Source: an uncultured Nitrospiraceae bacterium (GTDB lineage Bacteria; Nitrospirota; Thermodesulfovibrionia; Thermodesulfovibrionales; Dissulfurispiraceae). Taken from it: a stretch of DNA of 20,668 bases. The stretch's first letter is position 1; every line of letters begins with the position of its first letter. Positions 13,131-19,359 of this stretch are shown here, piece after piece. The stretch spans positions 1-20,668 of the forward strand of contig CAMTVO010000033.1 of the NCBI GenBank assembly GCA_947085205.1, read 5' to 3'. The notes beneath the pieces were generated by a model. That model ran no database searches. It was not told the origin of the DNA and worked only from the letters and a program-made list of their open reading frames with translations. Position numbers and translations under genes: made by a program.

Positions 13131-15011
13131 ATGGAGTTAAGGCTTACATCGGATGAAGTCATAAAGCTGAAGGAAAAGGAAGACATCTATTCTGCACTAA
13201 AGGGGTCAGGCGTTTATCTTGTTGCTTCCTGCGGCGGCAAGGGTACATGCGGCAAGTGCAAGGTAAAGATTGTAGAGGGAGAGTGCGATGTAATTTCTTA
13301 TGGAAAGCTCACTCAAAAGGAAAGGGAATCGAATATAGTCCTTGCCTGCCAGACCATTCCGAAAAGTGATGTTTTTGTTGAGATACCAAAGGAGTCCCGA
13401 CTTGTTGTTGGAGATAAAATAGCCATTGCAAGGACAAAAGACCTTGTCGAATATTTAAGGTCTTACGGCGTTGACATAAACCCTGCTGTAAAAAGAATGT
13501 ATCTCGAACTGCCGCCGCCGACCATCAGCGACAACATAAGCGACCTTGAGAGACTAAAGAGGGTGTTGGATAAAAAAGGCCTAAGCAATATAAGGTTTTC
13601 CCATGGCTTTGTATCAACAATGGCAGATACCTTGAGGCTTGGGAACTGGAAGGTTGAGTTGACATATGTCGGGGGCGACGGTATTCCGTATGAGGCAATA
13701 TTCCTGAGTTCGCCGGATGCATGCAACAGAAGATACGGAATAGCAGTAGATATTGGTACCACAACAGTTGTTGTCTATATCGTAAATCTCTTAACCGGTG
13801 AGATTGTGGATGTAGGCTCAACATATAACTCCCAGATGAGATACGGAGATGATGTTATTACGAGGATAGTTCATGCAACGGAAGGAGGCGGACTGCCTGA
13901 GTTGAGGGATACAGTTGTTACCGACATAAATACCATCGTGGATTCTTTGATGGAAAGGCACAGTATAGAGGCATGTGAGATAGACACTGCAACCATCGCA
14001 GGGAATACAACAATGTCCCAGATATTCTGGGGACTTAATCCAGGCTCCATAAGGGAAGAGCCTTACATCCCCACGCTCAACCAATTCCCCCAGTGGAAAG
14101 GCGGGACTGCAAAGCTCTCCATTAATCCTCAATCTACGGTTTATACTGTTCCCTGCGTTGCGAGCTATGTAGGAGGCGATATTGTTGCAGGCGTGCTTGC
14201 GTCAAAGATGCACAGGAATCCAGAAGTAGCCCTTTTCATGGACATCGGCACGAACGGCGAAATAACCATCGGCAATAATGAATGGCTTATGACCGCTGCA
14301 TGTTCTATGGGCCCGTGTTTTGAAGGAAGTGGCATCAGGCGCGGTATGAGGGCAACATCAGGAGCAATTGAATCAGTGAAGATAGACCCGAATACTTACG
14401 AGCCGACCATAAGCGTAATCGGAGGAGGTCATCCAATGGGCATCTGCGGCTCAGGCATGATTGACGCCATATCAGAGATGTTTTTGACAGGCGTGATAGA
14501 CCAGAAGGGCAAGTTTGTCAAAGGAAAGACGGACAGGATAATGGAAGGCGAAGAAGGACCGGAGTTTATGCTTTACAAAGACGAAGCCCATCATAAAGAT
14601 ATTGCGCTTACAGAAGTTGATGTCGAAAACATAATCAGGGCAAAGGCAGCCCTGTATGCAGGAATAAAAACCCTCCTGACTGAGGTCGGATTTACTATGG
14701 ATGCAATAGAAAGGGTCTATATAGCAGGGGGCTTTGGAAATTACATTGATATCGAAAAGGCAGTGATAATGGGAATGCTTCCAGATATTCCGAAGGAAAG
14801 ATTTGTGTTTATGGGCAACACATCCATCACAGGAGCTTACCTCTGCCTGCTTTCCGAGGAATTGAGAAAAGAGGCCGAGGATATTGCGTCAAAGATGACA
14901 TATATAGAACTTTCCGTTTATAGGAGCTTCATGGACGAATACATGTCGGCATTATTCTTGCCTCATACGGACATGAGCCAGTTCCCTACAGTGGCAGGTA
15001 TGATAAAATAA
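13131..15011 (+). CDS. RACo/AcsV-like ASKHA ATPase with N-terminal [2Fe-2S] domain (reductive activator of corrinoid proteins, DUF4445)
   Basis: CGGKGTCGKC...LACQ ferredoxin domain, DIGTTT, YGDDVITRI, GNTTM, YVGGDI, DIGTNGE, GICGSG and IAGGFG. GAGGTG SD. Confidence 0.92.
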   Translation: MELRLTSDEVIKLKEKEDIYSALKGSGVYLVASCGGKGTCGKCKVKIVEGECDVISYGKLTQKERESNIVLACQTIPKSDVFVEIPKESRLVVGDKIAIARTKDLVEYLRSYGVDINPAVKRMYLELPPPTISDNISDLERLKRVLDKKGLSNIRFSHGFVSTMADTLRLGNWKVELTYVGGDGIPYEAIFLSSPDACNRRYGIAVDIGTTTVVVYIVNLLTGEIVDVGSTYNSQMRYGDDVITRIVHATEGGGLPELRDTVVTDINTIVDSLMERHSIEACEIDTATIAGNTTMSQIFWGLNPGSIREEPYIPTLNQFPQWKGGTAKLSINPQSTVYTVPCVASYVGGDIVAGVLASKMHRNPEVALFMDIGTNGEITIGNNEWLMTAACSMGPCFEGSGIRRGMRATSGAIESVKIDPNTYEPTISVIGGGHPMGICGSGMIDAISEMFLTGVIDQKGKFVKGKTDRIMEGEEGPEFMLYKDEAHHKDIALTEVDVENIIRAKAALYAGIKTLLTEVGFTMDAIERVYIAGGFGNYIDIEKAVIMGMLPDIPKERFVFMGNTSITGAYLCLLSEELRKEAEDIASKMTYIELSVYRSFMDEYMSALFLPHTDMSQFPTVAGMIK

Positions 15012-15014
15012 GAC

Positions 15015-15212
15015 ATGAGCGAATATTCAAATTTTAGCTCTGAAAATAATGTCGAGCTTATCTGCCCTGCATGCGGCTCTGTTCTTACGGAACATGAACG
15101 CACCGAGGGAGGCTGGAACTGCAAATGCGGAGATTTTATTCCAGAAGGCATAGCGATAAATCCTTATAAGGGATTATCTAACCAGCACAAGCAGAATTCG
15201 CCATGGAGATGA
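15015..15212 (+). CDS. Small zinc-ribbon-like protein (65 aa)
   Basis: CPACG...WNCKCG. Starts 3 bp after the RACo stop. Confidence 0.6.
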   Translation: MSEYSNFSSENNVELICPACGSVLTEHERTEGGWNCKCGDFIPEGIAINPYKGLSNQHKQNSPWR

Positions 15213-15306
15213 CCCCTATCCCTTAGATGGAATACAGGAATTTCTTTTATTCTTAGACGCTTCTATCTTTCTTTAAATCCTTTCCATATTATATAATTCA
15301 ACAATA

Positions 15307-17436
15307 GTGGGCTTTTTTCATGACATAAGAAGAGATTTACATGCTGTTTTTGAGCGCGACCCTGCCGCGCGGAATGTGGCGGAGGTTATACTTGCATATC
15401 CGGGCTTTCATGCCATTTTTATGCACAGAATAAATCATGTTTTGTGGAGACTTAAAATTCCGGTCATTCCGAGGCTTTTGTCCCATATTGCACGGTTTCT
15501 CACAGGCATAGAAATACACCCTGCAGCAAAGATTGGAACTGGTTTCTTCATAGACCACGGGATGGGCGTTGTGATAGGCGAGACAACAGAGATAGGCGAA
15601 GATGTGTTGCTGTATCAGGGCGTTACATTGGGCGGTACTGGAAAGGAAAAGGGAAAGAGGCATCCGACTTTGGGAAACCATGTTGTTGTAGGCGCTGGCG
15701 CAAAAATCCTAGGGCCTATAAAGATCGGCGATTATGCTAAGGTAGGTGCGAACTCTGTTGTTCTAAAATCAGTCCCTGACCATTCAGTAGTTGTCGGTGT
15801 GCCCGGAAAGATTATCAAGAAAAAGGTTATGCGCATTGAGCAGGAAGGGCTTGTTGAGGCGCTTGACCATGTAAGGCTTCCGGACCCTGTGGAAGAGGAA
15901 ATCCATGAGCTTAAAGAGCATATAGTGAGACTTGAAAGCAGAATAGAGAGATTGGAAGGCAAAGGAGAGAGGATGAAGATATTCAATACGATGACTGCCA
16001 GGAAAGAGGATTTCGTCCCGATTTTAAAAGACAAGGTTGGAATTTACGCATGCGGCGTCACTGTATATGACTACTGCCATATAGGACATGCAAGGAGCGC
16101 AGTGGTTTTTGATGTTATAAGCAGATACTTACGATACAAGGGATTTAATGTCAAATTCGTAAGGAACTTTACTGACATTGATGACAAGATAATCAAAAGG
16201 GCCAATGAAGAAGGCATCTCATGGGATGCTATTGCCCAAAAATATATTAATGCGTATTACGAAGACATGGACAAGCTCGGCATTGCAAGGGCAGATGTAG
16301 AGCCAAAGGCAACGGAACATATAAAGGAGATGATTGATGTAATCAGTGCGCTTATTAAGAAAGGTTATGCCTATGCTGTTCAGGAAGGAGAGAACCAGAG
16401 CGTTTATTTCTCGGTTGATAAATTTTCCGAATACGCAAAGCTGTCCAAGAAAGGCATGAAGGATTTGCTCGCGGGAGCGCGCGTTGATGTGGATGAAAGG
16501 AAAAAGAATCCTATGGACTTTGCCCTGTGGAAGGCTTCAAAGGAAGGAGAGCCCTGGTGGAAAAGCCCCTGGGGAAAGGGCAGGCCCGGCTGGCATATCG
16601 AGTGCACTGCAATGGCGATAAAGCATCTTGGCGAATCCATCGATATACACGGAGGCGGTGCAGACCTCATCTTCCCGCACCATGAAAACGAGATTGCGCA
16701 GTCAGAGGCATTCACAGGAAAGCCCTTTGCAAAATACTGGGTGCATAACGGCTTTATTACCATAGATAAGGAGAAGATGTCCAAGTCCCTCGGAAACTTT
16801 TTCACCATCAGAGAAATTTTGGATAAATACGATGCCGAGGTTATCAGGCTCTTCCTGCTTTCGAGCCATTACCGTAGTCCGATAGAGTTTTCCAATGAAC
16901 AACTGCATGATGCAGAAGCATCGTTGGAAAGGTATTACAGCACAATAGCAAGGATTGATGATTTTCTGTCCCATGTTCCTGAGACCACAAAAAAAGTACA
17001 GACAGCAGAACTTGAAGCCACTCTCGAAAAATTCAAGAGCAGGTTTGAAGAGGCAATGGATGACGATTTTAATACAGCGCTGGCAATCGGGCATATATTT
17101 GAGCTTGTGAGAGAGGTGAATAAATTCCTTGATTCAAAGCCTTCTGGAGAAACAGCAAATGCATTGATAAAGAGGGCAAGGAATATATTCACAACTGTTG
17201 GCGAAGTCCTTAATCTCTTTAACAGGACGCCTGCCCGGTGGAATATTGATTTGCTCAAGATTAAGGAGATTCCACTTTTAGAGTCAGACATAGGAGCCAA
17301 AATTGAGGAAAGGCGTATTGCAAGGCAGGACAAGGACTGGGCAAAGGCGGACTCCATCAGAAAAGAGCTTGAAGAAAAGGGGATAATCCTTGAGGACAAA
17401 AGGGATGGGACATCGTGGAAGGTGAAGATTATCTGA
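15307..17436 (+). CDS. cysE-cysS: In-frame fusion of serine O-acetyltransferase (CysE, aa 1-222) and cysteine--tRNA ligase (CysS, aa 223-709)
   Basis: CysE motifs [37 protein letters not shown], hexapeptide repeats, LPDP plus coiled coil. CysS motifs [37 protein letters not shown]. No stop codon between them. Confidence 0.93.
15973..17436 (+). CDS. cysS: Cysteine--tRNA ligase translated from an internal start (487 aa)
   Basis: AAAGGAGAGAGG (15961-15972) directly precedes the in-frame ATG at 15973. [14 protein letters not shown] is a typical CysRS N-terminus. Confidence 0.7.
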
Positions 17437-17449
17437 GGATAAGGAGCTC

Positions 17450-17779
17450 TTAATCCACCAACATTTCTTTGATAACAGCCTTTACTTTTTTGATTTCAGC
17501 CGGAGTGATTCTGTCCAGATGCTTGACGAGCCGCCGTCTGTCAACAGTCCTTATCTGGTCGAGGACTATCCAACCCTTTTTGTTCTGAAACATCACGGCT
17601 ACTCTTGTAGGGTATTCATGGGATTTGGTGGTCATGGGAGCTATGATTGCCGTTTGGATATTCCTGTTTATTTCATCAGGCGAGATAACAACGCATGGCC
17701 GTGTTTTCCTGATTTCATGGCCGATAACAGGATCGAGATTAACGAGGTAGACTTCGTATTGGGTTATTTCCATTCCCAA
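17450..17779 (-). CDS. PemK/MazF-family endoribonuclease toxin
   Basis: VYLVNLDPVIGHEIRKTRPCVVISPDE...IIAPMTT...LDQIRTVDRRRL. Overlaps the antitoxin 3' end. Confidence 0.93.
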   Translation of the reverse strand: MGMEITQYEVYLVNLDPVIGHEIRKTRPCVVISPDEINRNIQTAIIAPMTTKSHEYPTRVAVMFQNKKGWIVLDQIRTVDRRRLVKHLDRITPAEIKKVKAVIKEMLVD

Positions 17780-18015
17780 TCCTTTATCTCTGAATCCATG
17801 TAGTCGTCTACGAGAAGCTCATCTTCATGCCGTTCGTGCATTAGCCTGAAGGCATTGTCCCATCCCTGCCTCGGCATTGTTTTGACGGGCTTTAAGACTA
17901 TCATGTTTTTTTTCACTTCGAGGGTTACTTCATTTTCGATGTGGCACTGCTTTAATATTGTCATCGGTATTCTTATCCCTTTTGAGTTGCCTATTGATAC
18001 AAGCTTTGCTTTCAT
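17764..18015 (-). CDS. AbrB/MazE-family antitoxin (83 aa)
   Basis: MKAKLVSIGNSKGIRIP, PRQGW..AF, acidic tail EWEW-like. AGGGAG SD before ATG at 18015. Confidence 0.92.
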   Translation of the reverse strand: MKAKLVSIGNSKGIRIPMTILKQCHIENEVTLEVKKNMIVLKPVKTMPRQGWDNAFRLMHERHEDELLVDDYMDSEIKDWEWK

Positions 18016-18037
18016 AGTTAGCTCCCTAATCGTTTCT

Positions 18038-18056
18038 GTAATTATAAAGTAATTAC
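18038..18056. promoter_or_regulatory. Probable TA autoregulatory operator
   Basis: Near-palindrome gtaatta-taaag-taattac just upstream of the antitoxin start. Confidence 0.55.
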
Positions 18057-18129
18057 GCATATGAAATCAATTGTATGTATTGCCGTATTTCTTGTAAAGT
18101 ATGTGTGAAATACTTTAAGAGGTCTGTAA

Positions 18130-18938: not shown

Positions 18939-18982
18939 TTGAAATTTTGTGATTGACAAGTTTATAATATCTTCCTTATATT
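18939..18982 (+). promoter_or_regulatory. Overlapping sigma70 promoters for the tRNA-tuf operon
   Basis: TTGAAA (18939)-18 bp-TATAAT (18963) and TTGACA (18953)-18 bp-TATATT (18977). Confidence 0.6.
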
Positions 18983-18995
18983 AATAAGTTATCTC

Positions 18996-19068
<73 letters not shown>

Positions 19069-19079
19069 TTTGTTTAAGC

Positions 19080-19161
<82 letters not shown>

Positions 19162-19163
19162 TG

Positions 19164-19198
19164 TAAATTTGAAATCTCAAATTTCAAATTTGAAATTT
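19164..19198. repeat. Self-complementary heptamer array between tRNA-Tyr and tRNA-Gly
   Basis: taaattt gaaatct caaattt caaattt gaaattt. 11-bp inverted repeat 19165-19175/19181-19191. Confidence 0.7.
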
Positions 19199-19206
19199 TG
19201 ATAGTT

Positions 19207-19281
19207 GCGGGAGTAGCTCAGTGGTAGAGCGTCAGCCTTCCAAGCTGAGGGTCGCGGGTTCGAATCCCGTTTCCCGCTCCA
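19207..19281 (+). tRNA. tRNA-Gly(TCC)
   Basis: gcgggag...ttcccgc, anticodon loop cttccaa, CCA encoded at 19279-19281. Confidence 0.95.
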
Positions 19282-19286
19282 TAATC

Positions 19287-19359
19287 GCCCATGTAGCTCA
19301 GTCGGCAGAGCACATCCTTGGTAAGGATGAGGTCACCGGTTCAATTCCGGTCATGGGCT
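19287..19359 (+). tRNA. tRNA-Thr(GGT)
   Basis: gcccatg...catgggc, anticodon loop ttggtaa. CCA not encoded. Confidence 0.95.

Follow-up and report, generated by a model that had tools for sequence, protein, structure and literature searches.

Can a bacterium make the committed enzyme of cysteine synthesis and the synthetase that charges tRNA with cysteine as one polypeptide, and also supply the synthetase on its own? The question is raised by a 20,668-nucleotide stretch of DNA (the window) from an uncultured Nitrospiraceae bacterium, in which cysE and cysS share one open reading frame on the plus strand (15307..17436; 709 amino acids, 80.5 kDa calculated). A sequence-only reading had proposed that two complete enzymes are joined here by a coiled coil, and that the linker also carries a ribosome-binding site for free CysRS.

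Two enzymes in one frame

The frame opens with GTG at 15307, closes with TGA at 17434-17436 and holds no stop in between. Residues 7-168 exceed the cut-off of the cysE model TIGR01172 (247.5 versus 210.65 bits) and residues 223-706 that of the cysS model TIGR00435 (596.7 versus 340), which bears out the claim of two enzymes in one stop-free frame of 709 codons. Family models and residue conservation delimit a short-type serine O-acetyltransferase core (residues 7-173; 15325..15825, plus strand) and a cysteinyl-tRNA synthetase of 487 residues (15973..17436, plus strand; 55.9 kDa calculated). The CysE half also passes NF041874 (EpsC-type) and does not pass the long-type PRK11132; the CysRS half falls below the MshC cut-off. 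At the junction the DNA reads AAA GGA GAG AGG ATG, with AAA at 15961 and ATG at 15973. The fused locus is the single cysE-like and the single cysS-like match in the whole genome (89.7% complete), and cysK lies on a different contig of the same genome (TIGR01139 above cut-off).

A stop in the linker, such as TAA for AAA at 15961, was looked for in other sequencing runs and is absent. A contig from run X2 crosses the linker (15613-16026) with no differences, and a contig from run X6, which comes from another study and represents a relative, spans 15593-16985, linker included, with no stop-making change or gap in the linker among the 40 differences listed of 124. Close relatives likewise show no such stop, the fusion being conserved across their genomes. 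An RNA-library contig (X8) from the sample of X6 covers 15628-16002, 29 letters beyond the ATG, and is uninformative on transcription, ends and strand.

Distribution and history of the fusion

Full-length, stop-free matches to the fusion are present in 33 of 41 genomes, with one further match covering residues 1-669; five of the same genomes are unfused, and two incomplete ones lack a strong match. Within the order Thermodesulfovibrionales, the junction query was matched in 234 of 251 genomes, and all 150 junction matches, among the matches listed, span the junction without a stop. By a hand count that split the best E-values at their gap (no worse than 1e-41 on one side, no better than 1e-36 on the other), about 175 of the 251 look fused and 59 do not. 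In a sample of the phylum (n = 151), junction-spanning matches are confined to the class Thermodesulfovibrionia, including two genomes of other orders; among the Nitrospirota sampled, the fusion was not found outside this class. The source names of the matches indicate Nitrospirota, Thermodesulfovibrionales and Thermodesulfovibrionia. Only one protein (P0103) covers both halves among the best 150 matches of 1.84 billion 50%-identity representatives. Eight longer matches that could have marked independent fusions elsewhere all lack a CysE domain, although a fusion behind a stand-alone representative would stay hidden in such a search. Two loci considered as fusions (L191 and L198) have adjacent, unfused genes. 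Separately, P0193 is a CysRS with a 226-residue N-terminal part that belongs to no Pfam or NCBIfam family and looks nuclease-like by eye.

In a CysRS tree (FastTree, 171 rows; the duplicates L172 and L174 and partial or short loci left out), one clade with a support of 100 comprises 121 fused, 27 stand-alone and 3 adjacent-gene loci. The tree includes split genomes by design, so its 121/43/7 composition is not a frequency. The fused label requires at least eight changes on starred branches, and unfused rows nest among fused ones in the clade. From the CysRS tree alone, we read the history as one ancestral fusion, which probably dates back to the ancestor of the class, followed by a single fission (in genus g27 of family f4) and by the loss of the CysE half in several lineages. 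The putative fission is represented by adjacent separate genes in one f4 clade (L038, L039 and L211).

On repeated occasions, the CysE half appears to have been lost and cysS retained with its start unchanged: 26 of the 27 stand-alone cysS genes within the clade begin at that position. Two of these loci (L235 and L167) have a TATAAT, an ATG at the distance of the cysE start, a short remnant and then a Shine–Dalgarno sequence (SD) with ATG, the layout that a deletion of cysE would leave. A whole-protein search found no orthologous cysE in 15 unfused genomes, at least 8 of which have a more distant, longer CysE (45-50% identity). Such a longer CysE (314-356 amino acids), a possible replacement, is encoded elsewhere in several genomes that lack the fused CysE half (L232-L234, L242, L243 and L253-L255). 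No cysE match was obtained in five of five genomes of family f10 (G033, G045, G056, G098 and G135; 99-100% complete) in a search without a positive control.

Conservation and predicted assembly of the two halves

In the CysE half, D83, H84, R118 and H119 are invariant in 114 of 114 loci and D18 is present in 112; these five align to H. influenzae residues 153, 154, 188, 189 and 88, respectively, and we take them to be active-site residues. In the E. coli numbering used by a survey of CysE, the active-site His and Asp are His158 and Asp92 (PMC13040420). The alignment begins at residue 80 of H. influenzae CysE (1ssq). This half is thus complete only as the short isoform, which qualifies the claim of two complete enzymes; for CysRS the claim stands. 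Because the N-terminal helices that build the hexamer are missing, a trimer is predicted, and the hexamer that the earlier reading had allowed is not borne out. Short isoforms are predicted to be trimeric in the same survey, which describes their feedback inhibition by cysteine as unmeasured (PMC13040420).

The C-terminal helix of CysE (residues 194-220; 15886..15966, plus strand) is predicted to form a three-stranded coiled coil that leads into CysRS, in agreement with the coiled-coil junction first proposed: a single-chain model has a helix at 194-216, and a trimer model has heptad-spaced contacts between copies at 195-220. The trimer model, of three copies of residues 1-235, scored 0.93 (best of three controls, 0.02) where similar trimers are already solved; its runs had at least 83% contact agreement and a pLDDT of at least 80. 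Of 30 solved pairs, 20 attain the mark that it passed, as does 1 of 23 single chains; this mark applies only roughly here, and the pass may reflect the similarity of the protein to CysE trimers of solved structure. Over the beta-helix and residues 148-195 the single-chain model is of poor quality. According to these models, the CysE tails would form a bundle that displays three CysRS units.

Conservation is similar in the CysE core (0.83) and in the catalytic domain of CysRS (0.82), and the linker varies in length and sequence among loci. As CysE continues into CysRS, it has no free C-terminal Ile. Binding of CysK through the terminal Ile-Ile of the fusion was considered and rejected: Ile is last in 18 of 138 fused frames and 6 of 59 stand-alone ones.

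The CysRS half has the features of a class I cysteinyl-tRNA synthetase, with the zinc ligands, HIGH (258-261) and KMSKS (490-494) present; C249, C433, H458, E462 and the His residues of HIGH are invariant in 114 of 114 loci. The earlier reading had linked KIIK (294-297) and KMSK to persulfide synthesis, an activity to which the lysines of both motifs are tied (PMC5660078). All four lysines are present in the window protein, but K297 of KIIK is Lys in only 34 of 114 loci. Because KIIK is not conserved, the persulfide link does not appear to be special here.

A constrained, probable internal start for CysRS

The proposal that linker codons double as an SD holds. AAGGAG lies within Lys219-Gly220-Glu221 (15962..15967, plus strand), ahead of ATG 15973..15975 (Met223), which is homologous to the start of stand-alone CysRS in the class. 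The codon for Gly220 is GGA in 82 of 89 loci, against a background of 24%, and in 26 of 29 loci of a subset below 75% identity. Only five parsimony changes (0.056 per sequence) are needed at this column, the lowest value of 163 four-fold columns; the other 162 have a mean of 0.40, a standard deviation of 0.05 and a minimum of 0.18. Codon context as the cause of GGA was rejected, other Lys-Gly and Gly-Gly columns having only 11-46% GGA.

At the CysRS start column, 115 of 121 loci have ATG (99), GTG (9) or TTG (7); the six exceptions are CTG (twice), ATA, ATC, CTT and GTA, the last with GTG one codon earlier. In the codon alignment of 114 fused loci the counts are ATG 96, GTG 9, TTG 7, GTA 1 and CTG 1. 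In control Met-rich columns, by comparison, GTG makes up 16 of 45 Val codons and TTG 22 of 260 Leu codons, and Ile is seen 127 times. Single GTG or TTG cases prove little, as both are one step from ATG. The long-branched f5 clade has TTG at the start column in 7 of 8 loci, as none of its 26 other all-Leu columns does; the corresponding test for the GTG clade is weak, because 4 of 42 other all-Val columns likewise share GTG. Ile stands at the CysRS start position in four database proteins. The loci L129, L130, L204 and L120, with ATA, ATC, CTT or CTG at the start, are natural candidates for fusion-only expression.

SD energies of -6 kcal/mol or better occur in 95 of 114 loci, against 111 of 1,571 other internal ATGs; the SD is weak in the remaining 19, and that of the window is moderate (-7.1 kcal/mol). 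The anti-SD was taken from a paper, the 3' end of the genome's own 16S rRNA not having been found. Taken locus by locus, the SD outperforms synonymous recodings (p no higher than 0.1) in just 10 of the 114 loci, since Gly-Gly codons supply much of an SD anyway. A 6-mer SD precedes only 46 of 7,734 internal ATGs in this genome, and the spacing is a usual one (a gap of 4 in 43 of 268 GGAGG sites). The junction is weakly folded, ranking on average among the weakest 14% of windows. Free CysE made by frameshifting into the TGA of ATGA is not supported, as Arg224 is AGR in 35 of 54 loci, in line with the background of 66%.

On this comparative evidence, the SD and start codon are under constraint at the DNA level, with a signal that is real at the level of the clade and lost in some lineages. 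Because selection on DNA appears to hold both elements, the locus likely makes two proteins, of 80 and 56 kDa, as had been suggested from the single sequence.

Promoter-like signals inside and ahead of cysE

A second constrained site lies within cysE and is absent from the earlier reading. Codons 142-146 are the most constrained of 502 five-codon windows (z = -5.7; the SD window, -3.5). Here the window has TATG-C-TAAGGT (15733..15743, plus strand; codons 143-146), a site that resembles an extended -10 promoter (TRTGnTAnnnT) and that we call P2, with a predicted start at about 15750. TGnTAnnnT is found at this position in 74 of 114 loci, whereas synonymous randomization gives 13 (maximum, 22) and the next best position has 16; among 44 divergent loci it is found in 28 (4.5 expected; maximum, 11). 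The full TRTGn form is present in 59 of 114. The third-position T is retained under Val and Ala alike, and family f2 spells TATTAT here with different residues. A preference for GTT in Val codons before Lys was rejected as the cause at codon 144, because Val in this context shows no GTT bias.

TRTGnTATAAT is described as an extended -10 promoter (PMC5036317), a type in which TRTG or TG lies at -17 to -14 ahead of TAnnnT and transcripts start 6-8 nucleotides downstream. In this genome, the density of TRTGnTAnnnT is 0.76 per kb in DNA upstream of genes, 0.30 per kb for the reverse strand and 0.046 per kb in coding DNA, a 16-fold excess of upstream over coding sequence and a 2.5-fold excess of the sense strand over the reverse. 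The P2 hexamer of the window (TAAGGT) has only three of six matches, the motif is absent in 40 of 114 loci (L129, L130 and L204 among them), and the minus strand of P2 also carries TAnnnT hexamers. We predict that the constrained site, promoter-like by sequence, is an internal promoter.

P2 and the SD may trade off. The motif, a strong SD or both occur in 108 of 114 loci, and neither in 6; weak-SD loci have the motif in 33 of 39 cases, and motif-less loci have a strong SD in 34 of 40. As related loci are not independent, this is only a lead. The stretch from P2 to the ATG does not behave as a structured leader (z = +0.41), and Rfam matches in the search were tRNAs only.

A TATAAT -10 box (15292..15297, plus strand; predicted promoter P1) lies 9 nucleotides before the GTG of the fusion, with no SD. 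A strict TATAAT 5-10 nucleotides before the fusion start occurs in 56 of 107 loci, against a shuffled mean of 1.3 and a maximum of 5, and an SD-like sequence at that start in 5 of 107. With the box so close and no SD, the fusion mRNA looks leaderless or nearly so. A plain promoter scan reported neither P1 nor P2, because neither has a -35 box. Strong synonymous bias in single columns was also seen at codon 7 (15325-15327; ATA in 81 of 93 loci) and codon 40 (CAC in 90 of 103), perhaps through leaderless initiation or by chance.

How the two products may be made

We favour, with rather more confidence than doubt, an old class-wide in-frame fusion that gives two proteins through a leaderless P1 transcript and the internal promoter P2. 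P1 would yield a leaderless mRNA, beginning at the GTG, for the 80-kDa fusion, and P2 a shorter mRNA with a leader of about 220 nucleotides, from which the SD and ATG 15973 would direct synthesis of free 56-kDa CysRS. In lineages that lack P2, a strong SD on the long mRNA would give free CysRS. With two such routes, the cell could adjust the amount of an essential synthetase independently of CysE. The addition of P2 and the leaderless-type start, which the sequence-only reading had omitted, thus changes how free CysRS would be made.

The strongest alternative is about what the fusion is for, and two products could still be made under it. The fused form may have no function of its own, the stop having been lost once, the read-through tolerated and the old operon signals kept for the essential CysRS. 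We regard this as a serious contender, though the less probable account. It would fit the many losses of the CysE half, the f4 clade with separate adjacent genes and a linker that is variable in length and sequence. Against it, the linker codons AAA, AGA, GGA and GAA are each one change from a stop that would be harmless given an internal start, yet there is one fission clade against 121 fused loci. The lack of stops in such a linker points to selection for keeping the fused form; the scarcity may also reflect a need for the CysRS activity that this form provides.

An unlikely alternative is that free CysRS comes solely from SD-led initiation on the full-length mRNA, with codons 142-146 acting as a regulator site or an antisense promoter. 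In keeping with a single transcript, 34 of 114 loci, including most of f11 and f12, lack the motif but have a strong SD, and the junction is weakly folded; the consensus TATGTTAAGATA is a near-palindrome. However, the palindrome is broken by GCT in 20 loci while TG-n-TA is kept, and there is no covariation: AAT at codon 143 pairs with ATA, not ATT, at codon 146, which weakens a palindromic regulator site. This class of motif, moreover, marks upstream DNA on the sense strand in this genome.

It is improbable that only the fusion is made, with the SD-like sequence making ribosomes pause while the protein folds or the trimer assembles, or both signals serving downstream genes such as rlmB, and Met223 being structural. 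The start codon is lost in L129 (ATA), L130 (ATC) and L204 (CTT), so the fusion alone can suffice in some lineages, and rlmB lies directly downstream in 52 of 114 loci, with flanks often too short to tell. A pause or a structural role leaves the choice of GTG or TTG at codon 223 and the near-absence of Ile unexplained, and on a P2 transcript the SD with its ATG would be the first strong start. Finally, an assembly error or recent private read-through found no support even in this metagenome-type assembly (89.7% complete) and can be dismissed, given the stop-free fused genes of relatives, the contigs of other runs over the linker, the clade-wide distribution in the tree and a complete-genome record with the same fusion (P0044; 710 amino acids).

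Possible role of the fused form

CysE makes O-acetylserine, not cysteine, and CysK is needed for the next step. The physical coupling of synthesis to charging that had been proposed for this locus is therefore excluded in its direct form, as channelling between the two active sites is impossible with CysK encoded elsewhere; any coupling that remains would be regulatory, and a regulatory use of the fused form is most likely. The 80-kDa protein would be a CysE trimer that carries three CysRS units on its coiled coil, and the attached CysRS may drain cysteine beside feedback-sensitive sites of CysE. Alternatively, fusion may stabilize a CysE that has no free C terminus. A fuller version, which we consider speculative and rather doubtful, is a protein-level sensor of cysteine demand that needs no T-box: charging would tune CysE in a trivalent CysE–CysRS trimer made from the leaderless mRNA, with housekeeping CysRS made from P2.

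Relation to known systems

The gene order gltX-cysE-cysS, with a short-type CysE beside cysS, is familiar from Bacillota. The present locus resembles that operon in its short CysE, in a C-terminal helix placed directly before cysS and in rlmB downstream; it differs in its single frame, its leaderless-type start, a promoter-like site in cysE and the lack of a free CysE C terminus. In Bacillota, T-box control of cysE-cysS is described (PMC7927825). A T-box leader was rejected here: none was found in the window's own genome (89.7% complete; the control registered in 5 of 14), and TATAAT lies 9 nucleotides before the start. The fusion layout derives from the cysE-cysS operon, with no T-box found.

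The truncated CysE of S. aureus and M. tuberculosis likewise lacks about 75 N-terminal residues, has a long C-terminal helix and is predicted to be trimeric (PMC13040420); here, by contrast, the tail runs into CysRS, and the C-terminal Ile for the cysteine synthase complex is absent. The main text of that survey does not contain the words fusion, fused or Nitrospir- (PMC13040420). The bacterial genes infB, arcB, speA and rpn have in-frame internal starts (bioRxiv 10.1101/520783); with them the locus shares full-length and N-terminally shortened products (predicted here), an internal SD and local synonymous conservation. In contrast to those genes, the shorter product here would be a whole essential enzyme to which the longer one adds a second, unrelated enzyme, and the predicted internal promoter would be dedicated to it.

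Cysteine synthesis is also physically tied to the charging of tRNA(Cys) in the SepRS–SepCysS–SepCysE complex, a likeness that extends to SepRS–SepCysS. In the SepRS route cysteine is made on the tRNA and handed over directly, whereas here the CysE product passes through a separate CysK. The tRNA-dependent route of SepRS and SepCysS is outlined in PMC7373986.

No description of a CysE–CysRS fusion was found in the literature covered, mostly the main texts of open-access papers, whose supplements could list one. Both enzyme families and in-frame internal starts are known; the fusion, the constrained P2 site and the leaderless-type start appear to be new in the literature covered. If the proposed arrangement is true, it would be a rare instance, class-wide, of an aminoacyl-tRNA synthetase joined to the enzyme that commits the cell to making its own amino acid, with a built-in way to produce the synthetase by itself. 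The loci offer natural variants for asking why genes fuse and split: fused with the start, fused without it, one fission and many CysE losses. The only cysE of these genomes is annotated as 'cysteine--tRNA ligase' or 'hypothetical protein', so metabolic reconstructions may be misled. The fusion can be tested, because a named species with a complete genome, Dissulfurispira thermophila (P0044), carries it; this species is presumably in culture.

Neighbouring genes

Directly upstream of the fusion, an AcsV/RACo-type corrinoid activation protein is encoded at 13131-15011. Between acsV and cysE, a small open reading frame (15016-15211) has CPAC and CKC motifs and is zinc-ribbon-like; the contig of the X6 relative skips 15027-15277. 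Between cysS and rlmB, the minus strand carries a MazF/PemK-like gene (NCBIfam, below cut-off) with a small upstream partner (17450-18060). In a relative (L003), cysS and rlmB overlap directly, and the pair in the window is likely an inserted toxin–antitoxin pair. Farther downstream, two strong sigma-70 promoter matches (18939-19359) precede tRNA-Thr, -Tyr, -Gly and -Thr, an ordinary arrangement.
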